DNA of 34,787 bases from Candidatus Micrarchaeia archaeon (GTDB lineage: Archaea > Micrarchaeota > Micrarchaeia > Anstonellales > J096), in the NCBI GenBank assembly GCA_041500865.1, contig JBGQMY010000010.1, forward strand, positions 1 through 34,787. Direction: 5' to 3'. This document shows, piece after piece, positions 184 to 32,013 of the stretch (within the stretch, counting starts at the first letter, position 1; the number at the start of each line of letters is the position of its first letter). The notes under the pieces were generated by a model. The model did no database searches and was not told the origin of the DNA. It saw only the letters and a list, made by a program, of their open reading frames with translations. The position numbers were made by a program, and so were the translations under genes.

Positions 184-792
184 TTAAACGGCAATGCACT
201 CGCCAAAGGATTTCATGAACGAAATCAATATTTCATTTCCAATCAAATCGCGCAATGGTAACATAGATCTAAGGAATTTTACTGTTTGCGATAGCCTTCT
301 GTTTGCGACCATCATCAGAGCCGTCCACTCTCTATTCTCCATGTTTATAGCTTTTTCTATGTCTCCGCCCGATTCGGCATACTTATATATAAGCAGAATG
401 CAGGTTTGGGTGTGCGCTCCTTCCACGGCCCGATGCAGAGCTGTATCTCCATATGCGTCCTTCGCGGTAATTAGATTCTGTACATTCTCTCCTGTTTTTG
501 CGTATTCCTCCATAAGCATTGTACAGGTTTGGGTGTTGCCTTTGCTTGAGGCATAGTGTAAGGGCGTCCAGCCATTATCATCCTTTGCGGTGATGTCAGC
601 GCCACGCTTGATGAGCCGCAATATCTTATCATTGTCGCCAAGCAGTGCTGCGGTTAGGAGCGCATTATCAAGCTCCTTGCGCTTCTTTTTTGACAATAGC
701 ATTCTTTTCGCTGACCATTTACCTGATTCAAGCAAGTGCATTGCCTTTTTCCTAAGGGGATGTGGCTTTTTTTCCTTATGTCGCTGCTCCAT
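184..792 (-). CDS. Ankyrin repeat protein with FxxxFxxC C-terminal tail (ank1)
   Basis: GWTPLHYASSKG and GDTALHRAVEGA repeats; ends FMKSFGECIAV; start placed at M17 of the track ORF, 24 nt after the TATA box. Confidence 0.9.
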   Translation of the reverse strand: MEQRHKEKKPHPLRKKAMHLLESGKWSAKRMLLSKKKRKELDNALLTAALLGDNDKILRLIKRGADITAKDDNGWTPLHYASSKGNTQTCTMLMEEYAKTGENVQNLITAKDAYGDTALHRAVEGAHTQTCILLIYKYAESGGDIEKAINMENREWTALMMVANRRLSQTVKFLRSMLPLRDLIGNEILISFMKSFGECIAV

Positions 793-799
793 GCTCCAA

Positions 800-822
800 T
801 TATGCGGCAAAGGGATTAAAAA
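800..822 (-). promoter_or_regulatory. Ank-family promoter, type A (TTTTTAATCCCTTTGCCGCATAA)
   Basis: Related motif at 6050-6072 and 22617-22638 at the same distance from an ATG. Confidence 0.6.
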
Positions 823-892
823 CAGCGCAGCAGCGCCCAAAAATAGTTCTCTTCCGCAGGGGCTTTAAACCATTTGATTCCATAGCCAGCCA

Positions 893-1717
893 ATGGACAA
901 AACCTCGGAGTTAGCAGCGGCGCTGGAGCAGTGCATACGCGAAAGCACCGAAGGCAAGGACGTCGCGGTCGCCTTCTCAGGGGGCATAGACAGCACGCTG
1001 ATAGCGCACATAGGGAAGAAATACGCAAAATCCATGAAGCTGATTACTGTCGGGACTGAAACAGGCGAGGACATTGCCTCTGCGCGGGAAATCGGCAAAG
1101 AACTCGGAATTGAGCCGGAGATACATATTCTGGACGGCAACGAGCTCATGTCATTGTTCGGCGAGACGTGCATGATGATGAACGCAGGATACCTTAAAAC
1201 AGAGATACTTGCGCCTATTCTGAAACTCTTGAAGCTGGCTGCAGCAGAAAAACGCACACTGCTACTTGGCTCGGCCGCTGAAGAGCTGTTTGCCGGATAC
1301 AGGAGGCACTATGAATGGGTAGGCAAAGATTGGGAGGAGATAAGGAAAAACTTGAACGACGAATACAGAAAACTGGGCAATGGGGGAGACATCAGTGCAA
1401 TAAGGGCAATGGCGGAAAAGGCAGGATGCGAGGTCTGCTTTCCGCTTTACGACGAACGGATTGAGAGGATTGCGCATTTCAATATGGACATTAAAGAGCA
1501 TTTCAGCAATGATGGATTAAAGAAGCCGATGCTAAGGAAGGCCGCGTCTTTGCTTGGCGTGCCAATAGCCGCAATAGAAAGGAAGAAAAAGGCATTGCAG
1601 TATGGTTCAGGCGTTGACAGGTTTTATTCAAAAAACAGGAAAGAGCTGGGAAAGATGTTTCCTGATTGCATGGAGCGAAGCGGAACATCAAAGGCGCTGG
1701 CAAAGAGGCCCAAATAG
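893..1717 (+). CDS. Asparagine synthase-related protein (ATP pyrophosphatase domain only)
   Basis: PP-loop AFSGGIDS, EELFAGY, KKKALQYGSG; no glutamine amidotransferase domain. Confidence 0.8.
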   Translation: MDKTSELAAALEQCIRESTEGKDVAVAFSGGIDSTLIAHIGKKYAKSMKLITVGTETGEDIASAREIGKELGIEPEIHILDGNELMSLFGETCMMMNAGYLKTEILAPILKLLKLAAAEKRTLLLGSAAEELFAGYRRHYEWVGKDWEEIRKNLNDEYRKLGNGGDISAIRAMAEKAGCEVCFPLYDERIERIAHFNMDIKEHFSNDGLKKPMLRKAASLLGVPIAAIERKKKALQYGSGVDRFYSKNRKELGKMFPDCMERSGTSKALAKRPK

Positions 1718-1748
1718 TGATTTAAACCCTTTCTTGCGAAAACGGACT

Positions 1749-2090
1749 ATGCCGAAAGATTTGCTTCCGCCGTATATGGCGGAGAATTATGACGTTATAT
1801 CTAGACGTTACACCAAGCAGTCAAGGGCCAAAAAGCTGGAAAACCTCGGCAGATGGCTGATTGACGCAGCAAAGAACGGGAATTTGGGAAGGGCGAAAAG
1901 GCTGATTAGGGCAGGCGCAGACCCGTCATTCGGGGACAGGGCCCCGATATTCAATGCACAGTTTTACCATCGCGACGGGCCCGTATCCAAGCTGCTGGCA
2001 GGGGTAGAAATCCTAATGGATAAAAAATCGGCATGGATAGGAAACAGGCGCCTGTTCAAATTGGCGTTTTTGGAATGCATAGGAAGCTGA
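1749..2090 (+). CDS. Minimal ankyrin-like protein with FxxxFxxC tail (ank2), 113 aa
   Basis: LIDAAKNGNLGRAKRLIRAGADP N-cap-like repeat; ends FKLAFLECIGS; TTTAAA about 25 nt upstream of ATG 1749. Confidence 0.75.
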   Translation: MPKDLLPPYMAENYDVISRRYTKQSRAKKLENLGRWLIDAAKNGNLGRAKRLIRAGADPSFGDRAPIFNAQFYHRDGPVSKLLAGVEILMDKKSAWIGNRRLFKLAFLECIGS

Positions 2091-2094
2091 AACC

Positions 2095-3237
2095 ATGAAG
2101 ATAGGCATAGTCGGCGATTTGCACATAGGCATGCGGATGCACAAGGGAAGGTTCAGGCAGGATGCGTGCATGCAGGCAAAGGAGGCCATGCACCTGGCGT
2201 CAAAGAACGCCGATGTCGTTATTCAGACCGGGGACGTGTTTGACACAGATTCGCCAAGCATGGAGGACATGGTGTGCGCTGCCGAGGCGTTCAGGGCAAG
2301 CAACGAGAACGGCAAGAAGCCGGTCCTCATACACGGAAACCATGAAAGGAGGATAAGGGGCATGGCAACGCCCCTCAACGTTTTCTCAAACGGCGGCATG
2401 GCGCACTATGCGCACGGCGAAACCCTGACGTTCGTTGAAAACGGCGAAAAGGTCAATATTATCTCAATAGGCCATATACCGGACAGCCAGGCAAGGAAAG
2501 CAATAGATGACGTATTGGAAAGGAACCTGGCAAACATAAAGGACGGGCTGAAGGTGCTGGTCCTGCACCAGAGCATAGAGGAATTCATGCCGTTCGGGGA
2601 CAACGCCTTGACATTGGCATACCTTGATTCGCTGAACGTGGACGTTGTAATAGACGGCCACATCCACAAGAGGTACGTTTCTGAAAGCGGAAAGGTTATC
2701 ATGCCTGGCTCAACCGTTGCCGCAAAGCTGGACGAAACTGAGCTTTCAGAGCCAAGGGCCATATTCATCTACGACACTGCAACAAAAAAGGCCGAGCCTA
2801 TCGAGCTAAAACAGAAAAAGGGCATTTACGCTGTTATTGATGTGGGCGGGCAGGCGCCGGGAAAGGCAGGCGAGACGATAGACGCCGCTTACAATAAAAT
2901 AAAGGAGGAAAACAGGGGCATTGGCATCATCGCGAAAATCAAGGCAAGGGGCGCGCTCAAGGAGGGCTTTGAGCGGAAGGACATAAGCGTAAGGGAATAT
3001 CCGGACGCAGTTGTGGACATTTCAGACGTTGTCGGCGAGGACATAAAGGAGAAAATCAGGCTCATAAAGGAGCTTGGAAAGTCAAAAAAGCCGCTCATTG
3101 AAAGGATAGAGGAGATGCTGGACAGCGAGCTGAAGGGAAAGATGAAAACAAGGCCTTCAAGCCTTTACAGGATGCTGAAGGAAAAGGAAGCGGATGAGGC
3201 GATGGAGTCACTTCTTTCCGGAAAGTGTGAGGACTAA
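2095..3237 (+). CDS. mre11: Mre11/SbcD-family DNA repair nuclease
   Basis: Phosphoesterase motifs GDLH, GDVFD, GNHE, LHQ, GHIH; 3' end overlaps lonB by 30 nt. Confidence 0.8.
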
Positions 3238-5274: not shown

Positions 5275-6042
5275 CTATGCCGATGAGACGCAGTCCCAGA
5301 AACCAGACAGGAAAGACCTGAATGTGTTGTTGCCCATGAATTCCTGAATGGCGTCCATTGACCTGAGGAACGCGACCGCTTTATTTTCGTTGCCATTTTC
5401 GGCTATTGAATAGGACGCGGTCCTGTCGTAGTTGTCCTTTGCCTCGATGCTTGCGTTGTGTTCAAGCAGTAAAGCGCATGTTTGGGTGCATCCGTTCCAT
5501 GCGGCATGCATGAGCGGGGTCCTGCCGTTGTTGTTCTTTGCCTCTATGTCTGCGCCTTTTTCAAGCAGGAAAGCGCATGTTTGGGTGCATCCGTTCGTTG
5601 CTGCCCACATGAGCGCAGTCCTGCCGTCATTGTCCTTTGCGTCGATGCTTGCGCCTTTTTCAAGCAGTAAAGCGCAGGTTGGGGTGCGTCCATACATTGC
5701 GGCATACATGAGCGCAGTACCGCCGTCATCGTCCTTTGCCTCGATGGTTGCGCCTTTTTCAAGCAGGAATTCGCAGGTTTGGGCGTGTCCGTTGGCTGCG
5801 GCATACATGAGCGCAGTCCAGCCGCCATTGTCCTTTGCCTCGATGCTTGCGCCTGCCTTGAGGCATTTCCTGATTTTCTCATCGTCTCCTTCCTTGGCGG
5901 CATCCAAGAGCATGCTGTCCAGTTCTTTGCGCTTCCTTGGAAGCATCAGCATCCTTTTTGCTGACGTTTTGCTTAACTCTAATAAACGCATTGTGCTTTT
6001 CCTGAAACGGCTTGGCTCCTTTTCCCTTTGGCGCTGGGCCAT
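5275..6042 (-). CDS. Ankyrin repeat protein with FxxxFxxC tail (ank3)
   Basis: Canonical 33-aa repeats GxTALMxAAxxGxxxTCxxLLEKGAxIxAKD; ends FLSGFWDCVSSA; start at M31 of the track ORF, after the promoter motif. Confidence 0.92.
   Translation of the reverse strand: MAQRQREKEPSRFRKSTMRLLELSKTSAKRMLMLPRKRKELDSMLLDAAKEGDDEKIRKCLKAGASIEAKDNGGWTALMYAAANGHAQTCEFLLEKGATIEAKDDDGGTALMYAAMYGRTPTCALLLEKGASIDAKDNDGRTALMWAATNGCTQTCAFLLEKGADIEAKNNNGRTPLMHAAWNGCTQTCALLLEHNASIEAKDNYDRTASYSIAENGNENKAVAFLRSMDAIQEFMGNNTFRSFLSGFWDCVSSA
5434..5855. repeat. 99-bp tandem DNA repeat (~4.3 units) encoding ankyrin repeats
   Basis: GT(C/T)CTTTGC... recurs at 5434, 5533, 5632, 5731 and 5830. Confidence 0.9.
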
Positions 6043-6073: not shown

Positions 6074-6631
6074 TCATCCTGCAGTGCAGTCACTGAAGGA
6101 TGCCATGAACGCCTTGAAGCTGTCCCTGCCAATGGATGCCTGAATCATTTCCATTGACCTGAGGAACGCGACCGTTTCATCCTTGTTGTTTATTTCCGCC
6201 ATTGCGGACGCGGGCCTGCCTTCAACGTTCTTTGCACCAACATCCGCGCCGTTTTCCAAAAGCAGGATGCAGGTTTGCATGCTCCCCAGCGCGGCGGCAT
6301 ACATGAGCACAGTATTTCTGTTTTTTTCTTTTGCGTTCACGTCCGCGCCCTTTTCAATAAGGAGCTTGCAGGTGTCGGAATTCAGATTCATTATTGCAAA
6401 GTGCAGGGCGCTCCATTCAGCCGCGCCTTTTGCGTTTATGTTTGCGCCTGCGTTAAGAAAATGATTTATCAGTACGTTGTTGCCCATTTTTGCAGCCCCA
6501 AAAAACCTGTTGTTGAGCTGCGCCTGCTCCTCCTTGCTCAGAATCCTTTTCTCCAGTAGCGGGTTTTGGCATTCTAAGTACGGTTTCCTTGCGGCACCGT
6601 TATCCTTAGGCGCTAGGGCTTGCTTCTGCAT
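6074..6631 (-). CDS. Ankyrin repeat protein with FxxxFxxC tail (ank4)
   Basis: SALHFAIMN and TVLMYAAALG repeats; ends FMASFSDCTAG; start MQKQ after the promoter motif. Confidence 0.9.
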   Translation of the reverse strand: MQKQALAPKDNGAARKPYLECQNPLLEKRILSKEEQAQLNNRFFGAAKMGNNVLINHFLNAGANINAKGAAEWSALHFAIMNLNSDTCKLLIEKGADVNAKEKNRNTVLMYAAALGSMQTCILLLENGADVGAKNVEGRPASAMAEINNKDETVAFLRSMEMIQASIGRDSFKAFMASFSDCTAG

Positions 6632-6638
6632 GCCTATT

Positions 6639-6672
6639 TTGTGGGCAAATGTGGTTAAAAAGGCTATGTTTT
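6639..6672 (-). promoter_or_regulatory. Ank-family promoter, type B (34 bp identical to 7795-7828)
   Basis: AAAACATAGCCTTTTTAACCACATTTGCCCACAA on the minus strand, 7 nt before the ATG. Confidence 0.7.
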
Positions 6673-7787
6673 TAGGCGGCAAGGCATTCATTGAAGGATG
6701 CGATGAAGGCAGCTGCCGTTTTGTTTCCGACTCCAAACGCTGCCTCTATCAATTTGACTGAAAGGAACTGCGCGGTTTCGATATTCTTCTCACTTATGGC
6801 AGACTCCAGGGCTGTTTTGCACCATCTCTTGTCTTCTAGGGAGATTAGCCCCGTTACGTTTCCTCCGGCTTCTGCGTATTTTCTTATGAGCAGGGCGCAG
6901 GTTTCTGTATGTCCGTTTTGTGCGGCAATGCGCAGGGCTGTCATACCGTTACCGTTCTTTGCAGAGATGAGCGTCCTTACGTTTCCGCCGGCTTTTGCGT
7001 ATTCTCTTATTAGCATGGCGCAGATTTGGTTGTATCCGTATATTGCAGCATCCATGAGCGCGGTCTTGCCGTCCTTGTCCTTTGCGGCAATTAGCTCTTT
7101 TACGTCTCTGCCAGCTTCTGCATATCTTTGCATTATCAGGGCGCATATCCCAGTGCGTCCATTGACTGAGGCCCCGTGCAGGGCTGTCCAGTATTTCTCG
7201 TTATCTGAGAGGATTAGCTCTATCATGCTTCCGCCGGCCTTTGCATATGCGTCTAAAAGCAGTTTGTATGTTTTTGTGTTTCCGCGCTGTGCGGAAAAGA
7301 GCATCGTCCAGCCGCCACTCCTATTTCCGGAGATAAGGTCTCTTACGTCTCCGCCGGCTTCTGCATATCTCTGCATTATCAGGGCGCAGGTTTTGGTGTT
7401 CCCATTCCATGCAGCATAGTCCAGGACGCTCCAGCATGATAATGATATATCGTTAGGGTTCTTGAAAGTGATTACCTCTTTTATGTCCACGCCTGCTTGT
7501 GCATATGCGTCCAAAAGCAGGGCACAGATTCTGGTCTGTCCCTTGTTTGCGGCATTGTACAGAGCCGTCCTGCACCTCTTGTCCTCCGCGTCAACATTTG
7601 CGCCTGCCTCAATGAAGCGTTTTATCCTGGGGATGTCGCCCGTTTTCGCAGCCCTTAAGAATCTGCTGTTGAGCCACGCCTGCTTCCTTGTGCCGGAATA
7701 CCATTTTTCTATAAGCGGCTTTTGGCTTTCTAAGTACCAGTTCGTTGCGGCGCCCTTGTCCCTAGGCTTCGGAACCTGCTTTTGCAT
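6672..7787 (-). CDS. Ankyrin repeat protein with extended 41-aa repeats and FxxxFxxC tail (ank5)
   Basis: Repeats carry a YA(K/E)AGG(D/N)V..LI insertion; ~123-bp DNA period (6854, 6977, 7100); ends FIASFNECLAA. Confidence 0.92.
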   Translation of the reverse strand: MQKQVPKPRDKGAATNWYLESQKPLIEKWYSGTRKQAWLNSRFLRAAKTGDIPRIKRFIEAGANVDAEDKRCRTALYNAANKGQTRICALLLDAYAQAGVDIKEVITFKNPNDISLSCWSVLDYAAWNGNTKTCALIMQRYAEAGGDVRDLISGNRSGGWTMLFSAQRGNTKTYKLLLDAYAKAGGSMIELILSDNEKYWTALHGASVNGRTGICALIMQRYAEAGRDVKELIAAKDKDGKTALMDAAIYGYNQICAMLIREYAKAGGNVRTLISAKNGNGMTALRIAAQNGHTETCALLIRKYAEAGGNVTGLISLEDKRWCKTALESAISEKNIETAQFLSVKLIEAAFGVGNKTAAAFIASFNECLAA

Positions 7788-10159: not shown

Positions 10160-13100
10160 ATGATTGCAATGGCAGAAAAGAACGAGGAATACACCGCTTC
10201 GTCAATCAAGATACTGGAAGGGCTTGAGGCCGTGAGGAAGAGGCCTGCAATGTACATCGGCGACACATACTCCAGGGGATACCACCATCTCCTGTATGAG
10301 GTGCTTGACAACTCCATAGACGAGGCGCTGGCAGGGCACTGCACAGAGATAAGGATGACGCTCAAGGCGGACGGCTCGGCCGAAGTGGTTGACAACGGAA
10401 GGGGCATTCCGGTGGACATCCATCCTGACACCGGCAAGAGCGCGCTTGAGGTCGTTACAACGATACTGCATGCCGGCGGAAAGTTCGACAACAAGAACTA
10501 CAAGGTCAGCGGAGGCCTGCACGGGGTCGGCATCAGCGTGGTGAATGCGCTGAGCGAGTGGATGACTGTTGAAGTGCACAGGAACGGCCATGTGCACATG
10601 CAAAGGTATGAAAGGGGCGTGCCGTCGCACGACGTGAAGGTCACCGGAACCACGGGCATAAGGGGAACCGCGGTCCGTTTCAAGCCTGACACAAAGATTT
10701 TCGGGGAGCAGGCATTCGAGCCTGAAGGCATCCTGGCCCGACTCAGGGAAGAGGCGTTCCTGAACCCGAAGGTAAAAATAATATTCAATGACGAGGCCTC
10801 CAAAAAGGAGGAAACGTTCTATTCGGAAAGGGGGCTTGCCGACTTCGTGGAAGCGCTGGACAAGGACAAGCCTGCGGTGTCTCCGGTCCTTACTGGAAGC
10901 AAGAGCGAGGGCAGCGTCCAGGTTGACTTCGCGCTGCAGTACGTCAACTCGTATTCCGAGAACATCTACGCGTTCGCGAACAGCATAAAGAACGAGGAGG
11001 GCGGAACGCACCTCGTAGGCTTCAGGTCCGCGCTGACGAGAGTCATCAACGACTTCATAAAAAGGCTCAACCTGCTGAAGGGAGAGGATAAGATAACCGG
11101 GGACGACATAAGGGAGGGCCTGACTGCAGCCATACACGTAAGGCTGCCTTCTCCGCAGTTCGAGGGCCAGACAAAAACCAAATTGGGCAACAACGAGATA
11201 AAGGGCATAGTGGACAGCATCGTCTACGACACGCTGAAGGAATGGATGGAGATGCATCCAGAAGACGGCAAGCGGATATCCCATAAGATAATCTCCGCCA
11301 TGGAGGCAAGGGAGGCAGCGAAGAAGGCGAAGGAGCTGGTGAGGCGCAAGAGCGTGTTTGAGACGTCCGTGCTTCCGGGCAAGCTCGCCGATTGCGCAAC
11401 AAAGAAGGCCGAGGAGGCCGAGCTTTTCATTGTCGAGGGAGAATCTGCTGGCGGATGTTTTGCGGGAGATATTGAGGTAGCATTGGCAGATGGAAGAAGC
11501 CTTAGCTTTAAGGAGCTAATAGACGAGGACAAAAAAGGCAAGGCAAACTATTGCTATACAATCAATGCAGATGGGACTGTTGGCATTGGCCTGATAAAGA
11601 ATCCCAGAAAGACAAAAACAAATGCAGAAGTCATGAAAATAACGCTTGACAATGGCGAAAGCGTCATTTGCACCCTTGACCACAGATTCATGCTAAGGGA
11701 TGGCTCATATACAAGGGCAGACAGCCTGAATAATGGCATAAGCCTTATGCCATTGAACAGAAAACTGTCAAAGATGGAAGGAAGGATAACGATAAAGGGC
11801 TATGAAATGGTCTACGACCCAAAAAAGAGCAAGTGGATATTCACCCATGTTCTTGCAGACAGATATAATGTCAATAATGACAAATACAGTTGCCTTTTGG
11901 GGGCCCATAAACACCATGTGGATTTCAATAAGCTGAACAACAGCCCTGAAAATATCATAAGGCTGTCCAAGGAAGGTCATCTTGGCCTGCATGCAAAGAT
12001 AGCTGAGAAGACGCTGCTTAGGGAAGATAATAAGCAGAAGGCAAGGGAAGCGCACAAGAATCCGGAATACAGGGAGAACATATCCAAAATAATGTCTACG
12101 CCAGAAATGAGGAAAATGCTTTCAGAAAGGGCGAAAAAGCAATGGGACAGCCAAGAATATAAGGAATACATGGTCAAAAAATTCATAAATTTTTATGAGA
12201 ACAATGCGGAATACAGGGAAGAAACCATAAAAAGGCTTGACAAGGCGCAAAAGGACTACTGGTCCAAGGAAGAAAACAGGAAGCTCCAATCAGGGATAGT
12301 CATGAAATACTTTGAAGAGCACCCTGAAGCCCGACACATACTAAGCGAATTGTCAAAAAAGCAATGGGATAATCCTCAGCTGAAAAAATGGAGAAGCAAC
12401 AAGACCAAGGAGCAGTGGACTTCCGAGTTCAGGAAAAATAGAAAACAGGCATATGACAGGACGTATTTCAATGCCACGATAGGGTTCATGAAGCAGATAC
12501 TGGAGAAATACGGCAATCTTGAATCCTATGACAAGGAAAGGGCAAAGTCGGGAAATAGGAACCTGCTTAAAAAAGGGACTTTTGTTGAAAGGTTCTTCGA
12601 TGATGACGAGGGCGCAATGCTGGAAGCCGTCAAGAATTTCAACCATAAGATAGCAATCATTGAGAGATTGGATGAAAAGATGGATGTCTATGACCTGGAA
12701 GTCGAGGGAACGCATAATTTCGCGCTTGCAGCCGGAATTTTTGTCCATAACTCCGCAAAGCAGGGCCGTGACAGGGAGTTCCAGGCCATACTGCCGCTCA
12801 AGGGAAAAATATTGAATATAGAGAAGGCTACGCTCCAGAAGCTGCTGAACAATGCGGAAATCAAGAACATCATACTTGCGCTAGGCACGGGCTTCAGCGA
12901 CGAATTTGACGTAAAAAAGCTAAGGTACCACAAGATAATCACGATGACGGACGCCGACGTGGACGGAAGCCACATAATGACGCTGCTGCTCACGCTGTTC
13001 TTCAGGTATTTCAGGCCCCTCATAGAGGGCGGATACATCTATGTTGCGATGCCGCCATTGTACAAGCTCAAGAAGGGCAGGGTTGAAAAGTACGCATACA

Positions 13101-13360
13101 GCGACGAGGAGAAGGACAGGCTGCTCAAGGAGCTCGGCGAGGGGACGGACGTGCAGAGGTACAAGGGCCTTGGCGAAATGAACCCTGACCAGCTGTGGGG
13201 CACGACCATGGACCCCGCAACCAGGAAACTGAAGAAAATCAGCATACAGGACGCGGCTTACGCCGACACGCTGTTCAACATACTCATGGGCGAGGAAGTG
13301 GAGCCTAGGCGCAAGTACATAGAGGAGCATGCGCTCGAAGTAAAGGAACTGGATGTGTAG
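10160..13360 (+). CDS. gyrB: DNA gyrase subunit B containing an intein
   Basis: EAVRKRPAMYIG, EVLDNSIDE, SGGLHGVG, EGESAGG/SAKQGR, PLKGKILN, DADVDGSHI, QRYKGLGEMN; alternative start 10169. Confidence 0.97.
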   Translation: MIAMAEKNEEYTASSIKILEGLEAVRKRPAMYIGDTYSRGYHHLLYEVLDNSIDEALAGHCTEIRMTLKADGSAEVVDNGRGIPVDIHPDTGKSALEVVTTILHAGGKFDNKNYKVSGGLHGVGISVVNALSEWMTVEVHRNGHVHMQRYERGVPSHDVKVTGTTGIRGTAVRFKPDTKIFGEQAFEPEGILARLREEAFLNPKVKIIFNDEASKKEETFYSERGLADFVEALDKDKPAVSPVLTGSKSEGSVQVDFALQYVNSYSENIYAFANSIKNEEGGTHLVGFRSALTRVINDFIKRLNLLKGEDKITGDDIREGLTAAIHVRLPSPQFEGQTKTKLGNNEIKGIVDSIVYDTLKEWMEMHPEDGKRISHKIISAMEAREAAKKAKELVRRKSVFETSVLPGKLADCATKKAEEAELFIVEGESAGGCFAGDIEVALADGRSLSFKELIDEDKKGKANYCYTINADGTVGIGLIKNPRKTKTNAEVMKITLDNGESVICTLDHRFMLRDGSYTRADSLNNGISLMPLNRKLSKMEGRITIKGYEMVYDPKKSKWIFTHVLADRYNVNNDKYSCLLGAHKHHVDFNKLNNSPENIIRLSKEGHLGLHAKIAEKTLLREDNKQKAREAHKNPEYRENISKIMSTPEMRKMLSERAKKQWDSQEYKEYMVKKFINFYENNAEYREETIKRLDKAQKDYWSKEENRKLQSGIVMKYFEEHPEARHILSELSKKQWDNPQLKKWRSNKTKEQWTSEFRKNRKQAYDRTYFNATIGFMKQILEKYGNLESYDKERAKSGNRNLLKKGTFVERFFDDDEGAMLEAVKNFNHKIAIIERLDEKMDVYDLEVEGTHNFALAAGIFVHNSAKQGRDREFQAILPLKGKILNIEKATLQKLLNNAEIKNIILALGTGFSDEFDVKKLRYHKIITMTDADVDGSHIMTLLLTLFFRYFRPLIEGGYIYVAMPPLYKLKKGRVEKYAYSDEEKDRLLKELGEGTDVQRYKGLGEMNPDQLWGTTMDPATRKLKKISIQDAAYADTLFNILMGEEVEPRRKYIEEHALEVKELDV
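11456..12751 (+). mobile_element. GyrB intein (432 aa) with HNH homing endonuclease
   Basis: Starts CFAGD, block B CTLDHRF, HNH motif HHVDFNKLNNSPENI, block F VYDLEVEGTHNF, ends VHN followed by Ser+1; visibly more A/T-rich than the exteins. Confidence 0.95.
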
Positions 13361-15634: not shown

Positions 15635-15883
15635 TTAAATTGTTAAGCGAGCCTTGGCGGCTGGCCTTGGATGCCGGCTTTTCAGTTCCATCGGTTCGGA
15701 ACTGCCCCCGAAAAGGTCCAAATGGGGGCCAAAGGCGGCTTCCATGCTTCCGTCTATCCTCATCTCAAGCAGGTGCAGCGCCTCCTTGAACTTGTGCAGA
15801 TGGGGCTTGCGCACCCTTTGGGAGTCCTTCCTCTTCATCAGCATGATGAGCTGCTTTTCAGGCATGGATAGCCATTGGGCCAT
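15635..15883 (-). CDS. Hypothetical protein (82 aa)
   Basis: Fills the gap, co-oriented with the downstream operon; no recognisable motif. Confidence 0.35.
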   Translation of the reverse strand: MAQWLSMPEKQLIMLMKRKDSQRVRKPHLHKFKEALHLLEMRIDGSMEAAFGPHLDLFGGSSEPMELKSRHPRPAAKARLTI

Positions 15884-16026: not shown

Positions 16027-17541
16027 ATGCAAGCCAAAGACCTAGGGCCTCCCCAGTTCTCCCAGGGTGGCCCGAGCCAGGAAGCCAGGAATGCCAGGAA
16101 CCGCCAGTTCATGCAGGGCGGGCAGGCAGCAGACCCTAGCATAAGAAATGCCGACCCACTGGCGGACAGTGCGCCCCTTTTCAAGAGCTACATCGGCGAA
16201 AAGATAAGCGGCGCAACAGGCGACACGTACACTATCCTCAGGAAGATAGGCTCAGGCGGCACAAGCACTGTCTACTCTGCCTCAAACACTAAAACCGACG
16301 AAAGGGTGGCAGTAAAATTCGTCGGCAAGGACTTCAGCGAAATAACAGAACAGGACAACGTACGCTTAGGGCTTGAGATAGAGGCCCTGGGACGCCTTGA
16401 CCACCCCAACATAATAAAGCTGATTGACGCCGGCAAGTACATGAACAGGAAGTTCATGGTCATGGAATACGTAAAGGGCGTGCCGCTGTCCGACACCCTT
16501 GCTGACAGGAAAATGGTGCCATGGTCCAGGGCCAAGTCCATGCTTTTGCAGGTATGCGGCGCCATGGCTGAGGCCCATGCGCAGAACATCATAAACAGGG
16601 ACGTCAAGCCGTCCAACATCATCATACAGAAAAATGGAAATGTCAAGCTCATAGACTTCGGCACTGTTAAAGTGCCGGAGGCAACGGCAGGCACCCAGAC
16701 GGGCGCGATAGTGGGCAGCTTCCGCTACATGTCACCTGAGCAGCTTGATGACAGCAGGAAGGCCGACTGCCGCTCTGACATATACAGCCTTGGCGCCGTT
16801 ATGTACGAATTGATTACCAAGACCACGCCATTCGACATGCATGGCACTGCCCTGCTCAAAAGCATAGCGATGGGCGATGCGCCTGCTCCAAGCAAGCGCC
16901 GCCCCGACCTTGGCATACCGGGCAGGATAGATAAGATAATCCTAAAGGCCCTTGAAAGAGACCCCGACAAGAGGTTCCAGACCATGAAGGAATTCGCAGA
17001 AGCCCTCCGCAGCTGCAACTGGGACGACAAGAAGCGGCGCAATGCCAACCGCGGCAAAACGCCTGCCGCAGTCCACGGGATGGAAAAGGAAGACAGAAAG
17101 CCTCTTGGTATACGGGAAGAACCGCCCAAAAAAACAAAAGACGACACGACAGTCGCGGATGCCAGCTTCATGTACCAGAATTGGGACAGCGGCGCGCATC
17201 GCAGCAGCCACATAGGGAAGATACTTCTAGCCATAAGCGCAGGCCTTGTCGTTGCCGGAGCTGCCATAGGCGTAGTGAGCCTGCATTCGGCCCGCCAGCA
17301 TGCCAAAGCAGAGCAGTCTGCCGTGCATGCCAGGCCCGCAACAGCAGAGCCGGATGCATCAATCTGGAGTGCCATGGCAGACAGCCTGTCTTCTCCGGAA
17401 ACCAAGGATTCCGCAGCAGGCTCCGGCACGATGCACCAGAAAAAGGGCGCAGCAAAGAATGCGAAAAAGGCAGGCAGCAAAGCCGGCGCGCAGCACCATA
17501 AAAACAGGGCAAATGACGGCGTTGAATCCAACTCCTGGTAA
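16027..17541 (+). CDS. Hanks-type (PknB-like) Ser/Thr protein kinase with a TM helix
   Basis: IGSGGTSTVY, VAVK, NRDVKPSN, DFG, YMSPEQ, SDIYSLG; TM ILLAISAGLVVAGAAIGVV; low-complexity tail. Confidence 0.92.
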   Translation: MQAKDLGPPQFSQGGPSQEARNARNRQFMQGGQAADPSIRNADPLADSAPLFKSYIGEKISGATGDTYTILRKIGSGGTSTVYSASNTKTDERVAVKFVGKDFSEITEQDNVRLGLEIEALGRLDHPNIIKLIDAGKYMNRKFMVMEYVKGVPLSDTLADRKMVPWSRAKSMLLQVCGAMAEAHAQNIINRDVKPSNIIIQKNGNVKLIDFGTVKVPEATAGTQTGAIVGSFRYMSPEQLDDSRKADCRSDIYSLGAVMYELITKTTPFDMHGTALLKSIAMGDAPAPSKRRPDLGIPGRIDKIILKALERDPDKRFQTMKEFAEALRSCNWDDKKRRNANRGKTPAAVHGMEKEDRKPLGIREEPPKKTKDDTTVADASFMYQNWDSGAHRSSHIGKILLAISAGLVVAGAAIGVVSLHSARQHAKAEQSAVHARPATAEPDASIWSAMADSLSSPETKDSAAGSGTMHQKKGAAKNAKKAGSKAGAQHHKNRANDGVESNSW

Positions 17542-21249: not shown

Positions 21250-22521
21250 CTAACCCCCTGCCTTGGCGGCCTGCTGCAGCGTGTCGCGGGTCAGTATCTT
21301 GCGTATTTTTTCGCTTGCTGCAAAGAACGCGTCAACGACATCGGGGTCAAACTGCTTGCCGTGCCCGTCCCGTATCAGGTCGCAGACCTTCTCAAACGGC
21401 CACCCATCCTTATAGGACCGGGTTGAGGAAAGCGCCTCTGCGACGTCAGCGACCGCCGCAATCCTTCCTGAAAGGGGTATGCTGCTGCCTGATATGCCAT
21501 TGGGATAGCCCGTGCCGTCCCATTTCTCGTGGTGGGTAAGGGCAATCTCGGCAGGTATCGTGTTGAACGGCGCCTCGATGCACGAGAAATACGCATGCCC
21601 TATCTGCGGATGCATCTTGACTGTCTTGTATTCCTCTTTCGTGAGCCTGCCGGGCTTCTGCAGTATGGCTGCCGGAATGCCTATCTTGCCTATGTCGTGG
21701 AGCGTAAGCCCGTGCGCAAACGGCTCCCTGAGGCGCAGGTCCGTGTAAAGCGGCACGCCCATCTGCATCGCGAGTTCCATGCCGATGTCCGTCACGCGCT
21801 GGGCATGGGCGCCTGTTTCGCCAGGGTCAAACGTCGTTGCCACCTTTATCATGTTCAGGGTATGGCTCCTTGCCGTAAGCGCCTTGTCCAGCGCGCCGCC
21901 GGCGTGCCTCGCCATTATCTCTATGCAAAGCCTGTCCTCATGCGAAAACGGCACAACCTCCCTGCCCGCTTTCTTGTTTATGAGCTGTATCACGCCCACA
22001 AAATCCCCGACATATCCGAAAAGCGGCGCGACAAGCATTGAAACGGAACGGTATCCCGAAGACCTGTCAAAGTCGCTATTGAAGAAAGGGGGCCCCTTGA
22101 GCTCATAGGCATCCCGGATGCAGAGCACGTTCTTGGTGTCTGCGACATACCCCGCGATGGACGAGCGGTCGACAGGAATGACCTTGTTGGAATAATTATA
22201 ATTGAAGTCGTTAATCCCAAGCTCCCTGTTCTTTATGTATCCGAAGCGCAGTATCCGGCCCATCTCCTTATGGTTCTCGTATACGTAAATCGTCCCTGCG
22301 TCAGCGCTGAAGAACGCCATTGCGCCCGAAAGCTCCCTGTCAAGCACGTAATTCAGGTCTGTTACGGTCGTGTGCCTGGCATGCTTGTACAACGACACAA
22401 GCCTGTCAAGCGCCCTTGCCTTCCTTGACGTGATGTCGCTCCCTGCATCCAGTATGTCCGCGCGGGTGCTGTATGGGCCCTGCTTTCTTTCTGCGCCGCG
22501 ATGCTGTTTTTCTATTGACAT
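21250..22521 (-). CDS. GAF + HD-GYP domain phosphodiesterase
   Basis: GAF (SIAGYVA, FNSDFDRSSGYRSVSMLVAPL, GVIQLINK); ETGAH, LHDIGK, HHEKWDGTGYP, VADVAEAL. Confidence 0.92.
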   Translation of the reverse strand: MSIEKQHRGAERKQGPYSTRADILDAGSDITSRKARALDRLVSLYKHARHTTVTDLNYVLDRELSGAMAFFSADAGTIYVYENHKEMGRILRFGYIKNRELGINDFNYNYSNKVIPVDRSSIAGYVADTKNVLCIRDAYELKGPPFFNSDFDRSSGYRSVSMLVAPLFGYVGDFVGVIQLINKKAGREVVPFSHEDRLCIEIMARHAGGALDKALTARSHTLNMIKVATTFDPGETGAHAQRVTDIGMELAMQMGVPLYTDLRLREPFAHGLTLHDIGKIGIPAAILQKPGRLTKEEYKTVKMHPQIGHAYFSCIEAPFNTIPAEIALTHHEKWDGTGYPNGISGSSIPLSGRIAAVADVAEALSSTRSYKDGWPFEKVCDLIRDGHGKQFDPDVVDAFFAASEKIRKILTRDTLQQAAKAGG

Positions 22522-22805: not shown

Positions 22806-23414
22806 CTATTGGACGCACGCCCTGAATGAAGCAAGAAACGCCATTGCGTTTTTCTTTCCCACAGTGTCGGCAAGCCATTCCATTGATTTAAGGAGCTGCG
22901 CGGTCTGGAGCTTCCCGAAGTTATAGGCGCTGTCGTAGGCCTTATTGCCTATGTTGTTTTTAGCGTTCACGTCAGCGCCGTTTTGTATCAGCAGGATGCA
23001 GGTTCGGGTGTGCCCCCCGTGCGCGGCGAAGTGAAGCGCCGTCCAGCTGTCGCTGTCCTTTTTGGAGGGGTTGGCCTTGCGGGACAGCAGGAGCCTGCAA
23101 ACGTCATAATGACCTTCTGCGGCGGCTGCCATCAACGGCATCCTTCCGAACGTGCCGGCGTTATCTGGGGATGCGCCAAGCTTGAGAAGCAGCCGGCAGA
23201 TGCGCAGCTGGCCGTCGTTGGCGGCAGCATACATGGCAGTGTTGCCGCTTAACCCCATGAAGGCATTGACGCTTGCGCCATGCCTTATTGATGATTTTAC
23301 GCGGGGCATGTCCCCCGAGCACACGCCCTCTATCAGCATGCTGTCGTACCCTGAGGCAGAGCCTGAGGCAGGGCGCCTGGACCTTGAAATGGCTGATTTC
23401 CTGAAGAGCCGCAT
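22806..23414 (-). CDS. Ankyrin repeat protein with FxxxFxxC tail (ank6)
   Basis: GNTAMYAAANDG, MPLMAAAAEGH, WTALHFAAHGGH; ends FLASFRACVQ. Confidence 0.9.
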   Translation of the reverse strand: MRLFRKSAISRSRRPASGSASGYDSMLIEGVCSGDMPRVKSSIRHGASVNAFMGLSGNTAMYAAANDGQLRICRLLLKLGASPDNAGTFGRMPLMAAAAEGHYDVCRLLLSRKANPSKKDSDSWTALHFAAHGGHTRTCILLIQNGADVNAKNNIGNKAYDSAYNFGKLQTAQLLKSMEWLADTVGKKNAMAFLASFRACVQ

Positions 23415-23641: not shown

Positions 23642-24205
23642 CTATTGGACGATGCATTCTGCGAAAACCGAGAGGAACGACTGCAGCGCCTTTCTGCCAA
23701 TTGAGTTGCGGAATGCGACAACAGCCCTCATAGATTCAAAATTTTCGTTGTTTCCTACCGCTAAGGCGATATCGAACGCGGTGTCGCCAGATTCATCAAC
23801 TGCCTCAATGTCGGCATCGTGGGTAATCAATATAGCACACGTGCATCCGTCCGCATTCCTTGATGCGATTAATAGCGGGGTTTCGTTGAATTTGTTTTTT
23901 GCATCAACGTCAGCGCCCCTGCGGACAAGCAATCCACAGGTTTTTGCGTTTGCATTGTACGCCGCATACATGAGCGCGCTCTGGCCGTCCTCCCATGCCG
24001 CGTTCGCATCCGCGCCAGCATCCAATAGTTGCTTAATCCGGTTAGTACTGCCATTCACGGCGACCGCCGCCAGCAGCTTTTCGTCCAGCACTTGCTGGTT
24101 TTCCTTGCTTAATTTGGGGCGTGCCTCCGGAGCAGGCTTTTTTGCATCCAGCCTAAGTGCTGTGTTTGCAGGTTTGGACTCCTTTTTCGCATATTTCTGG
24201 AGCAT
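23642..24205 (-). CDS. Ankyrin repeat protein with FxxxFxxC tail (ank7)
   Basis: GQSALMYAAYN, ETPLLIASRN, GDTAFDIA; ends FLSVFAECIVQ; promoter motif at 24213-24236. Confidence 0.9.
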   Translation of the reverse strand: MLQKYAKKESKPANTALRLDAKKPAPEARPKLSKENQQVLDEKLLAAVAVNGSTNRIKQLLDAGADANAAWEDGQSALMYAAYNANAKTCGLLVRRGADVDAKNKFNETPLLIASRNADGCTCAILITHDADIEAVDESGDTAFDIALAVGNNENFESMRAVVAFRNSIGRKALQSFLSVFAECIVQ

Positions 24206-28105: not shown

Positions 28106-28113
28106 TTTAAAAA
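28106..28113. promoter_or_regulatory. Candidate bidirectional TATA box (sppA / C/D sRNA)
   Basis: TTTAAAAA begins 30 nt before the sppA ATG; its complement begins 30 nt before the sRNA 5' end. Confidence 0.55.
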
Positions 28114-28135
28114 CAATTCCGAACCATCCCAAGCC

Positions 28136-29119: not shown

Positions 29120-29406
29120 GAACATACAAGCCGTCGCACAGGCCTGACTTCAGGTACATCGAGATTGACAATGCCGGAAGGGTTGACATAGGCTCGTACC
29201 TGCTGGGCTTCTTCGGGACGTCCGGTTTCGGCGCCCTGATGTTCAAGCCGATAAGCAAGCGCGGCAGCTCGGAGACAATAAGGGTGGAAAGGGGCTCTGC
29301 AAGGGCCGTGGCAGGCGCGCTGCTCTGCTCGAAGGGCAGGATAAGGATTAAGAGGATAAGCGGGACGCTGGCAAGCTTGGGAAGGAAGATGAAGAAGGAT
29401 GCATAA
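29116..29406 (+). CDS. rnp2: RNase P protein component 2 (Pop5/Rpp14 family)
   Basis: RYI...FFGTSG...IRVER...V.GAL...ISGT pattern typical of Pop5; translationally coupled to sppA. Confidence 0.65.
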   Translation: MRTYKPSHRPDFRYIEIDNAGRVDIGSYLLGFFGTSGFGALMFKPISKRGSSETIRVERGSARAVAGALLCSKGRIRIKRISGTLASLGRKMKKDA

Positions 29407-29854
29407 GACGATAATCGCTGTTTTGGTCGTTTTTGCAATGCTGTATGGGTGCCTTGGCCAGGGCCAGGTGAGCAACGAGGAAGTGGACAAGGTGCTAAAC
29501 GGCACGGACAGGAAGAACGTCAGCGTCGGCATACTGATGTATTATGGCGAAGGCTGCCCGCACTGCGCGAACACCATATCGCTGCTGAACGAGCTCAACC
29601 AGTCCTACAACATAAGCATGACGCTTAAGGAGACATGGCACAACGACGCTAACCAGAACGAGATGCTTGCCGCGTACGGCAAATTCGGGGCAAACACGAG
29701 CCTGGCAGGCGTGCCGACCATGATTATAGGCGGGAAAATGATGGTCATTGGCGAGCTCTCTGTCAAGAACTGGATAAAGACGATTGACATGTGCGGTAGC
29801 GGAAGGTGCCCGTCCGGCGCCTTTGATGACGACACGGTTCCGGCCCTGGGCTAG
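29399..29854 (+). CDS. Thioredoxin/glutaredoxin-like lipoprotein
   Basis: LYGC lipobox, CPHC, GVPT cis-Pro loop. Confidence 0.8.
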   Translation: MHKTIIAVLVVFAMLYGCLGQGQVSNEEVDKVLNGTDRKNVSVGILMYYGEGCPHCANTISLLNELNQSYNISMTLKETWHNDANQNEMLAAYGKFGANTSLAGVPTMIIGGKMMVIGELSVKNWIKTIDMCGSGRCPSGAFDDDTVPALG

Positions 29855-29900
29855 GCTAAAGGCAAGGTATTTAAAAATGTTTATAAAAAAATCTCCATCC

Positions 29901-31136
29901 ATGGACATGTCTAGGATATTCTTTGCATTCGCCATTTTGGCGCTCTTGGCAATGCCGGGATGCATCGGCGGGGCCCAGTCGGGCGGGACCGGGACCGCAA
30001 TCAACGTGACGATGGTCGTCTACGAGGGCATAGGCTGCCCGCACTGCACGAACACCATAACGCTGCTGAACGACATACAGAAAACGTACAATTTTACCCT
30101 CATACTCAAAGAGGTGAGGTATAACCCGGACAACAACAAGGAACTTTTCAGCATGTACGACAGGTTCGGGTACGACTCCGCGAACGGCGGCATACCCACG
30201 ACGATAGTCAACGACAGGATAATGATAGTCGGGGAGCTTTCCAGGGACTCAACGATAAAGCTGATAAACATATGCCAAAGCTCAAGGTGCCCTGTAGGCG
30301 CATACACGAGCGCGCAGATGGACGAGCTGATAAAAAACATAGAGCAGAACGCCAACTTCAGCTACGACACGGAGCTTAAGCTGAACCGGACGGCCAATGC
30401 GAGCGTCTCGCCAACAAAGAATCCGGGAGACATACCTTTGATGATACTGGTGCCGGCTGCGGTCGCAGACTCCATAAATCCTTGTACTATGGCGATAATG
30501 GCCATGCTGCTTGCCATAACGCTTGAGAAGAAAGGCAAGAAAAGCGTGCTGATGAGCGGCGCCGTTTTCGTGACCGTCATCTTCATATGCTATTTCCTGA
30601 TGGGGCTTGGCGTCATGAAGGTCGTTGGCGACATCAGCATAGAGAAATATTTCTTCTATCTGATGCTGATTATTTCCACTGTGATAACCATCCTGGAGAT
30701 AAGGGCCTATTTCGCCTACCATCCTGGAATGGAGTCCATAGAGATACCGATGTTCCTGAGGCCGCAGCTCCAGAAGGTCATGCAGATGGCGACCTCGCTG
30801 CCCATGGTGGCTGTCGTTGCCCTGTTCTGCTCGCTGTTCCTTTTGCCGTGCTCGTCAGGCCCGTACCTGATGATACTCAGCATGCTGTCAATGACCGACA
30901 TATGGACAACAGCTTTCTTCAAGGCAGTGGGATATTTGCTGCTTTACAATGCGATATTCATTGTTCCGCTGCTGGCGATAACCGCGATTGTAGCATTCGG
31001 CATAAGGAACCCGGGGGACATACTGACATTGAGGGACAAGTACGTGAAGCAGATGCACCTTGTTGCAGGTTTGCTTATGCTGGTCGTTACAGTCATGCTT
31101 GCTGCGTTCGTGTTCAACAGCGGGCTGTTCCGCTGA
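29901..31136 (+). CDS. Thioredoxin-like domain fused to a CcdA/DsbD-type membrane domain
   Basis: MPGC lipobox, CPHC, GIPT; ADSINPC and LPCSSGPY redox Cys in ~6 TM helices; start may be 29907. Confidence 0.85.
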   Translation: MDMSRIFFAFAILALLAMPGCIGGAQSGGTGTAINVTMVVYEGIGCPHCTNTITLLNDIQKTYNFTLILKEVRYNPDNNKELFSMYDRFGYDSANGGIPTTIVNDRIMIVGELSRDSTIKLINICQSSRCPVGAYTSAQMDELIKNIEQNANFSYDTELKLNRTANASVSPTKNPGDIPLMILVPAAVADSINPCTMAIMAMLLAITLEKKGKKSVLMSGAVFVTVIFICYFLMGLGVMKVVGDISIEKYFFYLMLIISTVITILEIRAYFAYHPGMESIEIPMFLRPQLQKVMQMATSLPMVAVVALFCSLFLLPCSSGPYLMILSMLSMTDIWTTAFFKAVGYLLLYNAIFIVPLLAITAIVAFGIRNPGDILTLRDKYVKQMHLVAGLLMLVVTVMLAAFVFNSGLFR

Positions 31137-31199
31137 AGCTTTTTAGGGAAAAGCTTCAGCAAAAAGAGCCTTTTGGAAAAAGGCTCCAGCGAAAAACGG
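31133..31199. repeat. Two tandem copies of a REP-like palindrome
   Basis: CTGAAGCTTTTTAGGGAAAAGCTTCAGCAAAAAG and GAGCCTTTTGGAAAAAGGCTCCAGCGAAAAACG; reverse-complement relatives of 22744-22780. Confidence 0.8.
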
Positions 31200-31248
31200 A
31201 TTGATGCCAATCAACATCATTTTTAACCTCTCTTATTAACATTAAACC

Positions 31249-32013
31249 ATGCAGATTCAGGAAAAAAGGCCTGAACGCTGGGAAAGGCACAACAACCCCC
31301 TTAAGTTCAAGCCAGAGCCAGACGACGCGGCAGGCGCAATTAAGCACAACCAGAAGCTCCTGGACTGGATGCTCATACAAGGCGCGGGGATGGTTTGGAT
31401 AGATGCGGATAAAATCAAAAACCTACTGGACAAGGGCGCCAACCCCAATGCGCGGATAAATGGCGGCGAAAGCGCGCTTATGGAGGCCGCAGAGTATGCG
31501 CGTGCCGACGTCTGCTCATTGCTGCTTGAGAAAGGGGCGGACGTTGACGGAAAGAACAGCTATAAGGACACTCCTCTTATGCGTGCTGCGGCAGCCGGCT
31601 TGAGAGACACGGTTCTTCTGCTGCTGGAGCATGGGGCCAGAATCAACGCAAGGAACAGGGCAGGCGAAACTGCGCTCATGCTGGCGATAAAGGATAACCA
31701 TAGGGAGAATATTGAAACGGTCAGGCTCCTGGTTGAGCATGGCGCAAAGGTGAATGCAAGGAGCGGAAATCGCATGACCGCGCTCTTGGATGCCGCAAGC
31801 TACCGCCATGCCCGCATTGCCGAATTCCTGCTGGAGCATGGGGCAGACGCAAACGCAACCGATTGCCTCAACCAAACCGCGCTCACGCACGTTACAAACG
31901 AAAACAGCGAACTTTTCCAAATGCTGAAAGACGCGGAATCCATGCAGAAAATCGTCGGCTTGCCTGCATTGGGCGGGTTTTTGTCCAGCTTCCGCGAATG
32001 CATCGGAAGATAA
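31249..32013 (+). CDS. Ankyrin repeat protein with FxxxFxxC tail (ank8)
   Basis: GESALMEAA, DTPLMRAAAAG, GETALMLAI, MTALLDAA; ends FLSSFRECIGR. Confidence 0.92.
   Translation: MQIQEKRPERWERHNNPLKFKPEPDDAAGAIKHNQKLLDWMLIQGAGMVWIDADKIKNLLDKGANPNARINGGESALMEAAEYARADVCSLLLEKGADVDGKNSYKDTPLMRAAAAGLRDTVLLLLEHGARINARNRAGETALMLAIKDNHRENIETVRLLVEHGAKVNARSGNRMTALLDAASYRHARIAEFLLEHGADANATDCLNQTALTHVTNENSELFQMLKDAESMQKIVGLPALGGFLSSFRECIGR

Follow-up and report, generated by a model that had tools for sequence, protein, structure and literature searches.

Variable ankyrin-repeat binders that each carry a constant short helical module at their end are known from the ANK-PRANC/F-box proteins of poxviruses and Orientia and from the ankyrin/SOCS-box (ASB) proteins. 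Here we describe a comparable arrangement in a Candidatus Micrarchaeia archaeon (genome G000, 1.04 Mb, 92% complete). Its LonB protein has its closest named relatives in a Micrarchaeota MAG (77%) and an Anstonellales MAG (63%), which places the archaeon in Micrarchaeota and probably in Anstonellales. The window, i.e., the whole stretch of 34,787 nucleotides analysed (contig C10 of G000), contains eight ankyrin genes whose proteins end in the same short motif, F-x3-F-x-[E/D]-C-[I/V] in its strict form. They belong to a genus-wide library of ~90 ankyrin proteins, all ending in one conserved predicted helix, hereafter the tail. Within the tail, positions are counted from the Cys (C0, hence F-7, F-3, D/E-1 and +1), whereas the offset of the Cys itself (e.g., offset -4) is counted from the C-terminus. 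A literature and database-finding search, with subscription papers and most supplements outside its coverage, returned no account of the tail, nor of a link between ankyrins and AAA+/VWA proteins in Micrarchaeota. The tail is thus undescribed in the literature searched, and it is part of a design that recurs across Micrarchaeota. We favour, with somewhat better than even confidence, the reading that the constant tail helix is a docking handle joining many variable binders to one common partner, and the arrangement is best filed as a variant of the 'variable repeat binder plus constant docking module'.

The likeness to the ANK-PRANC/F-box and ASB/SOCS-box proteins lies in the logic of a variable ankyrin part followed by a constant C-terminal module. 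The systems differ in the module itself: three tails searched against Pfam (E ≤ 10) gave no match, be it to an F-box, SOCS or PRANC domain or to an annotated capping domain, and the tail had no PDB sequence match. They also differ in their setting, the bearer here being an archaeon without known eukaryotic host and the candidate partner a MoxR AAA+/zincin-VWA machine, not a cullin ligase; searches for F-boxes and U-boxes came back empty, as did their controls. In the BC-box, a Leu precedes the Cys by four residues, a spacing that the tail does not match, its position -4 being S, D, P, A or N. The XVIPCD (Xanthomonas VirD4-interacting proteins conserved domain) of type IV secretion system (T4SS) effectors is likewise a constant C-terminal module on many variable proteins (PMC8740702), but it measures ~120 aa and is carried by diverse effectors, whereas the tail measures ~20-30 aa, occurs almost only on ankyrins and does not track the secretion ATPases. 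The CaaX effector AnkB of Legionella is, like the proteins described here, an ankyrin protein with a near-terminal Cys, often at offset -4 (PMC2916131). In contrast, the Cys offset of the tail ranges from -3 to -16, a small residue stands where a2 would be aliphatic, and the Cys lies in a predicted helix together with invariant Phe residues.

As regards the putative partner, the closest systems are the MoxR-vWA ternary systems (Kaur et al., 2020; PMC7159879) and CbbQO, NorQD and Rea1 (PMC4660213), which share a MoxR/dynein-type AAA+ ATPase and a VWA protein with a MIDAS (metal ion-dependent adhesion site), combined with a variable third component. In these systems the VWA protein captures a peptide or an acidic residue and the ATPase remodels the complex (PMC7159879; PMC4660213); MIDAS sites generally bind an acidic residue of a partner, as in CbbQO, whose VWA protein uses its MIDAS to bind such a residue of the target (PMC4660213). 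MoxR-vWA pairs with a variable third component have been proposed to be conflict systems (Kaur et al., 2020), in an article whose main text, supplements being outside this count, contains neither 'ankyrin' nor 'DPANN'. [quoted passage not shown]

The eight ankyrin open reading frames (ORFs) and the C-terminal sequences quoted for them in a preliminary description of the window, made from the DNA alone, were all confirmed, as was the Cys offset of -4 in six of the eight, the exceptions being the genes at 5275 (-5) and 22806 (-3). The strict motif is absent from all remaining ORFs of the window, in agreement with the statement that no further protein ends in this way. Seven of the eight genes have Pfam ankyrin matches (PF00023/PF12796, tandem 33-aa helix-turn-helix repeats). 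The 113-aa protein encoded at 1749-2090 has no Pfam match and weakly matches a hidden Markov model (HMM) of ankyrins built in this analysis (E 0.001); this near single-repeat member does keep the tail, as had been noted, and its orthologue in one of the two congeners of the source genome (G001 and G002), namely G002 (66% identity), retains F/F/C. Stretches of the window are present in sediment metagenomes (shares of 0.97, 0.73 and 0.46, the first possibly being the source sample), and long stretches identical to it were recovered from four sequencing runs, from up to four studies. Since these long pieces are free of differences, the window genes are not assembly artefacts. No RNA dataset was among the runs listed in this search.

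We collected 218 distinct tails from G000, its two congeners and a protein collection, a set chosen by the motif, in which F-7 and F-3 are each present in 213 of 216 tails, the Cys in 215 of 216 and D or E at -1 in 173 of 216. When the F, F and C columns were masked (leave-one-out in G000, independent in G001 and G002), the profile still recognized 96 of the 176 ankyrin ORFs scored, and among these F-7 was found in 96, F-3 in 93 and the Cys in 95, although the tails share only ~30% mean identity; 11 of 925 non-ankyrin genes also passed, none of them with the Cys. The earlier proposal had been that the tail is the conserved part of these proteins. Offset -4 is the commonest position of the Cys (134 of 215 tails) without being universal: 49 tails have it at -3, 30 at -5 or -6, and one each at -10 and -16, i.e., 81 of 215 (38%) elsewhere. 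Codon use at the motif equals that of the genome (TTC 72/92 vs 0.74; TGC 87/92 vs 0.95), which places the constraint on the protein level and led us to reject a DNA-level motif or recombination site. The ratio of nonsynonymous to synonymous changes in six orthologue pairs, with 0 of 18 changes at F/F/C sites, was not used, being circular (the pairs were picked by the motif).

The source genome encodes 121 ankyrin ORFs (118 complete) among ~1,055 called genes. Ankyrins thus make up about a tenth of its genes, and their number exceeds the 23-60 ankyrin genes quoted for Wolbachia (PMC3563639). The tail is present on 93 of the 118 complete ankyrins and on 3 of the 925 other genes called, and one of these three is itself a degenerate ankyrin; its occurrence in the ankyrins of G000 is far beyond chance. 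Tailed proteins with a promoter-defined start (60 proteins) are 117-378 aa long. They begin with a leader that is hydrophilic and basic, its median net charge being +6 compared with +1 for the genome as a whole, and none of the 60 has a hydrophobic signal peptide. A shared promoter cassette scoring above 20 bits precedes 58 ankyrin genes and 9 other genes, the proteins starting directly behind it; in the window, the starts of four genes (792, 6042, 6631 and 23414) lie downstream of those of the longest ORFs. The family spreads as promoter-gene cassettes. In tandem arrays (window 6672-6707 and many other junctions in G000), the last codons of a tail and its stop codon immediately precede the TATA box of the next gene, and relics of them are found before isolated promoters. 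Four ankyrin genes have lost the tail through a frameshift or stop codon (G000 C23:1212-1965, C1:17371-18015, C12:11709-12263 and C13:3605-4148), and the sole C>R variant of the tail lies in one of these fragments; such truncated genes are consistent with birth-and-death turnover.

The tail is limited to one genus, as found by searching an HMM of it against this genome and other archaea: its profile matches 3 of 41 related genomes, all of this genus (97, 26 and 39 matches), and, in a sample of 401 genomes of the phylum, members of the genus only, plus one weak match in G199 that was dropped as spurious (E 8.7e-4, internal stop). Matches of the DNA pattern in other genera were chance reading frames wherever inspected. 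Among 1.84 billion cluster representatives, 123 tail matches were obtained, corresponding to 117 ankyrin proteins, 5 short fragments and one protein, P0059, dropped as spurious; except in the latter, the match is always at the C-terminus. Thirty-four of these matches are at least 95% identical to ORFs of the genomes analysed, and the taxonomy of the 89 others rests on their common leader style and similarity.

The tail is also carried by proteins other than ankyrins. An orphan 330-aa helical-repeat protein (G000:C13:15918-16907), with the same style of leader, ends in the ankyrin tail; its tail has the highest position-specific scoring matrix (PSSM) score among the 925 non-ankyrin genes, a score reached by none of 244,143 internal windows. 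Its three homologues (56-62% identity) all retain F, F, D and C, as does the protein itself, and in all four the Cys is at offset -3. A single ancient 3'-end fusion may have brought the tail onto this scaffold, and its presence there argues against an ankyrin-specific cap. The predicted model of this protein is poor (pLDDT, i.e., predicted local distance difference test, 62, and below 50 in the tail), with matches to generic helical-repeat proteins only (Z ≤ 7) and none in Atlas. Another strict-motif match, C13:5089, has no similarity to C13:15918 and no PSSM rank, and was not counted as a carrier. Eight ~525-aa paralogues of G000 (C11:21395-32391, and C35), seven of them in tandem, mostly end in a conserved Cys-containing C-terminus unlike the ankyrin tail.

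Ankyrin matches are present in 193 of the 401 genomes sampled from the phylum, and families unrelated to one another show large expansions (226, 218, 116, 107, 79, 75, 70, 70, 55 and 46 candidates at first look). In the stretches examined, six further lineages have constant tails of their own, i.e., G008, G124 (one array, with the tail on at least 34 of its 38 genes), G187 (13 of 13; array on G187:C12), G083 (5 of 6), G337 (12 of 13; array on G337:C1) and G041 (4 of 4; array on G041:C2), whereas the ankyrins of G343, G131 and G313 end in ordinary caps. No comparison of tails between lineages was significant (best 11%), and the private tails scanned from the other arrays gave no Pfam family of note. 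The G008 tail is a different Cys-containing helix, L-x3-L-x2-C-[DNS]-K, with 18 matches in 1 of 301 genomes and the Cys 10-17 residues from the end. Its homology to the genus tail was not supported: hhalign gave probabilities of 23% and 1.7%, on the ankyrin helix only, PSSM scores were negative, and the resemblance is one of pattern only. In G083, a HEAT protein carries the ankyrin tail of that genome (pairwise E 3e-4).

A candidate for the common partner is encoded next to several of these ankyrins. The 38-gene tandem array of G124 (G124:C1:689380-723757), in which most neighbouring ankyrin genes overlap by ~14 nt, is interrupted by a tandem of an AAA_5 ATPase (E 6.7e-27) and a zincin-VWA protein (VWA E 7e-11), found by an AAA_5 search of ankyrin-rich genomes; another such cassette (AAA_5 E 3e-17) lies ~10 kb from ankyrins in G083, with the tailed HEAT protein directly upstream of it (G083:C19:31018-35765). 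In G000, the VWA protein (C1:71147-74524) has no Pfam match and the ATPase is divergent (AAA_22 E 5.6e-10, AAA_5 only 0.02), with relatives in 8 of 41 genomes (three of the source genus, G008, G020 and three of genus g6) and in 5 of 401 phylum genomes. The HExxH and DxSxS...T...D (MIDAS) motifs are invariant in all seven aligned candidate partner proteins. A profile of seven zincin-VWA proteins gave 9 strong matches in 271 genomes, three of them outside the training set. One of these three, the locus G053:C7:198994-204686, which did not contribute to the search profile, has an operon-like order AAA-VWA-ANK-ANK-ANK on one strand, its ankyrin tails resemble those of G124, and a remote ankyrin gene of the same genome ends like those adjoining the cassette. 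Altogether, 11 cassettes were examined; five of them, in G000, G001, G020, G053 and G124 (four lineages), directly adjoin or overlap an ankyrin gene, and 7 of 11 lie within ~10 kb of one, the two extra being those of G002 and G083. Gene neighbourhood and the analogy with MoxR-vWA systems make the AAA+/zincin-VWA machine the leading candidate for the shared partner, a tentative assignment to which we give about half of the weight given to docking itself. The presence of D or E at -1 in most tails is compatible with binding to a MIDAS, and no more.

The last 120 residues of the protein encoded at 5275 were modelled from an alignment of 103 sequences (pLDDT 90.5, predicted template modelling score (pTM) 0.82), with helices at 86-101 and 103-119. 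Solved ankyrins match this model at Z 13-17, most aligning only up to residues 92-102. The preliminary description had placed a helix-Gly-helix of ~30 aa outside the ankyrin fold. According to the model and the alignments with solved ankyrins, this holds for the last helix, which bears the motif and is extra, but the helix in front of the Gly belongs to the last repeat, of which it is the second helix, lengthened. Fold searches, dominated by the repeats (residues 1-102), listed no known adaptor fold for the tail, and its Atlas matches were short nameless clusters or generic ankyrins. The tail is a predicted extra amphipathic helix. On a helical wheel, its hydrophobic side consists of a stripe that varies (-10, -6, +1) and one that does not (F-7, F-3, C0, flanked by the small residues at -4 and -11), while the acidic residue at -1 is on the polar side. 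Conservation of the invariant stripe exceeds that of the residues it likely touches in the helix before it (F 76%, M 38%, L 60%, M 23%), and we infer that the variable stripe would pack within the protein while the invariant one would face a constant partner. Covariation between the preceding helix and the tail is weak, in an analysis dominated by subfamily signal.

Several observations weigh against docking at such a machine. Two solved ankyrins align with the model through the last helix, as a cap would (8glv_AH: 1-120, Z 16.6, root-mean-square deviation (rmsd) 1.9, 111 aligned; 6if3_A: 1-118, Z 13.6, rmsd 3.1), the model gives that helix a fixed position (pLDDT 84-90 at the same pTM), and the length of the spacer changes mostly by a single turn of helix (33 vs 36-37 residues), so that the hairpin stays in register. 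For G124, G187, G083 and G041, the identity among tails (0.58-0.70, against 0.50-0.74 for the bodies) does not exceed what recent duplication would produce, and such duplication could suffice to make them constant; in the source genus as well as in G008 and G337, identity of the bodies reaches only 29-41%. The association of cassette and ankyrin expansion at the genome level suffers from circularity. A cassette is present in 5 of 7 ankyrin-rich genomes and in 4 of 264 others, but leaving out the genomes that trained the profile makes the enrichment disappear (0 of 2 vs 3 of 263, on the assumption that the 271-genome sample is nested within the 401). The profile search found no cassette in the ankyrin-rich genomes G187 and G131, nor was one present at the loci examined in G337 and G041, and four cassettes (G008, G011, G014 and G101) have no adjacent ankyrin gene in the DNA examined, two of them being on contigs shorter than 9 kb. 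The acidic residue at -1 is not invariant (~20% other residues), and the G187 tail has no conserved acidic column. In view of the structural points, the tail could be a plain C-cap, an extra helix packing back on the last repeat that arose once in the ancestor of the genus and spread by duplication, and the weak covariation as well as the dispersal of the family as promoter-gene cassettes would suit this explanation. We nevertheless consider a cap unlikely, because the same tail is kept on a non-ankyrin scaffold in four of four homologues and other ankyrins of G000 manage with ordinary polar caps. Neither an invariant Cys nor an acidic residue enriched on the polar face would be expected of a cap, nor would an invariant stripe better conserved than its supposed contacts.

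The preliminary description had also considered a secretion signal, and the tail could indeed direct ankyrins into a host cell through a T4SS-like machine. T4SS effectors are known to carry constant C-terminal domains by which they are recognized (XVIPCD; PMC8740702), injection by a VirB4-like route has been suggested for nanohaloarchaea (PMC10266531), the 60 tailed proteins checked have no hydrophobic signal peptide, and among the genes of G000 are those for a TraG/VirB4-like ATPase (P-loop_TraG E 2.8e-8), for a fragment of a TrwB-like ATPase and for pilin-like proteins (matches below the Pfam cut-offs). The tail does not track these ATPases, and a secretion signal, although possible, appears improbable to us: in the family, a VirB4-like ATPase is found in 19 of 19 genomes and the tail in 3 of 19, while TrwB-like (VirD4-like) proteins are found in 4 of 19 and were missed, with the query used, in G001 and G002. 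In addition, the promoter and basic leader also occur on proteins without the tail, and it is the leader that is common to tailed, tail-less and non-ankyrin proteins. In G000, a TraG/VirB4-like ATPase gene is part of a five-gene cluster (C1:79969-86062), and pilin-like genes are located on C6, C15 and C29. Lipidation of the Cys, either CaaX-type prenylation by a eukaryotic host or acylation, with the amphipathic helix as a membrane anchor, would explain the single invariant Cys, its frequent offset of -4 and the mostly I, V, L or T residues at a1. By the rules of yeast farnesyltransferase (PMC10320760), restrictive residues are rare in the 134 tails with this offset (D/E/K/R at a2 in 9, K/P/R at X in 8), and Q, the favoured X, is the commonest (35 of 134). 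The same source describes most CXXX sequences as permissive, making this a weak fit, and a canonical aliphatic a2 occurs in 1 of 134. A lipidation signal, as had been suggested earlier, fits poorly also because the offset varies, the non-ankyrin carriers all have -3, the parallel Cys of G008 is far from the end, and four residues suffice in AnkB (PMC2916131), which leaves the invariant Phe unexplained. Most tails of the other lineages are without Cys, so lipidation is not a general rule, and the terminal codons are copied along with the promoter of the next gene, hence the ends are not independent. Prenyltransferases (PF00432) were found in 0 of 4 genomes, the control being likewise silent everywhere, and Rce1-like proteins in 0 of 3 genus genomes. 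The genus yielded neither LRR (leucine-rich repeat) nor SET genes, and no eukaryote-type effector domain besides the ankyrins turned up. We hold lipidation to be quite improbable. Even less credit is due to a Cys-bearing helix forming a transient mixed disulfide with an oxidoreductase-type receptor, or binding a metal between two family members. The geometry of the mitochondrial intermembrane space-sorting or -targeting signals (MISS/ITS) of Mia40 substrates, X[Ar]XX[Hy][Hy]XXC (PMC2806287), is that of an amphipathic helix in which one face bears the Cys, an aromatic residue at -7 and a hydrophobic one at -3. The two Phe of the tail fit it, but position -4, important in ITS, is small or polar in the tail and a large hydrophobic residue in only 5% of tails, so that the tail departs from this pattern. 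Moreover, there is no mitochondrial context, no export signal toward an oxidising compartment, and no Mia40-like partner was identified.

Docking is favoured over these explanations because F/F/C are kept when masked and are more conserved than their likely intramolecular contacts, because the constraint acts on the protein, and because the tail also occurs on a non-ankyrin scaffold, private tails exist in six other lineages and linkage to the cassette is repeated. The idea of a library of variable binders with a common C-terminal module is thus supported by the non-ankyrin scaffold and the recurrence in other Micrarchaeota, and of the three functions put forward earlier for this module (lipidation, secretion or docking) docking fits best. 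In the mechanism that we propose, the C-terminal end would form a helical hairpin in which the variable stripe (-10, -6, +1) packs on the preceding helix, leaving the invariant stripe with its small residues and the acidic residue at -1 free for the partner. The AAA+/zincin-VWA machine would then take hold of the tail, perhaps with the metal of the MIDAS contacting the acidic residue and/or the zinc of the zincin contacting the Cys, and would use ATP to pull on, remodel or cleave the target bound by the ankyrin, be it a protein of a virus, a parasite or a host. Interaction with a host had been thought plausible in the preliminary description. Since Anstonellales have been credited with considerable biosynthetic capacity (PMC12892359, the available text of which does not contain the word 'ankyrin'), a host is not a given for this organism. 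An AAA+/VWA partner within the cell is at least as likely as host interaction.

The positions of the eight genes and of an example of the promoter cassette are listed in Table 1.

Table 1. Ankyrin genes of the window, their tail motifs and an example of the promoter cassette
Feature	Position	Strand	Tail motif or remark	Cys codon (offset)
Ankyrin gene, 202 aa, basic N-terminal leader	184..792	-	184-219	196-198 (-4)
Degenerate single-repeat ankyrin gene, 113 aa	1749..2090	+	2055-2090	2076-2078 (-4)
Ankyrin gene, 255 aa (last 120 aa modelled)	5275..6042	-	5275-5313	5290-5292 (-5)
Ankyrin gene, 185 aa	6074..6631	-	6074-6109	6086-6088 (-4)
Ankyrin gene, 371 aa, long-insert repeat type	6672..7787	-	6672-6707	6684-6686 (-4)
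Ankyrin gene, 202 aa	22806..23414	-	22806-22838	22815-22817 (-3)
Ankyrin gene, 187 aa	23642..24205	-	23642-23677	23654-23656 (-4)
Ankyrin gene, 254 aa	31249..32013	+	31978-32013	31999-32001 (-4)
TATA-containing leaderless promoter cassette (example)	793..832	-	immediately upstream of start codon; the other seven genes have similar copies in front of them	

A short ORF at 15635-15883 (minus strand), the middle part of which resembles the N-terminal leaders of the genes at 184-792 and 5275-6042, is a possible relic of an ankyrin gene. The window also encodes two bacterial-type signalling proteins, a Ser/Thr protein kinase with a hydrophobic segment (16027-17541, plus strand), located behind an ankyrin-type promoter, and a GAF-HD-GYP-like protein (21250-22521, minus strand), in this small archaeon. 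A GyrB gene at 10160-13360 has a long insertion that, judged from its sequence, looks like an intein with a homing-endonuclease-like region.

The dealings of DPANN archaea with hosts, viruses and competitors are a largely unknown field, and a constant tail offers a single bait for the machine behind ~90 proteins and names a concrete candidate. In the cysteine switch, a Cys ligates the zinc of a zincin. It is conceivable, although we would call it a possibility rather than a probability, that an equivalent of the cullin-RING substrate receptors, but free of ubiquitin, has arisen repeatedly in Micrarchaeota, in which libraries of tens to a hundred ankyrins with lineage-private handles would serve one MoxR-type AAA+/zincin-VWA machine that pulls on and cleaves their catch; in the present genus, the Glu of the handle would complete the MIDAS metal site and its Cys could ligate the zincin zinc. 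The unrelated tails of the different Micrarchaeota lineages make comparisons between cognate and non-cognate pairs possible. If the tail were only a cap, the family would be an unusual gene-family expansion of less interest; if the link with the AAA+/zincin-VWA machine is true, it would represent a modular, reprogrammable protein-targeting system in archaea.

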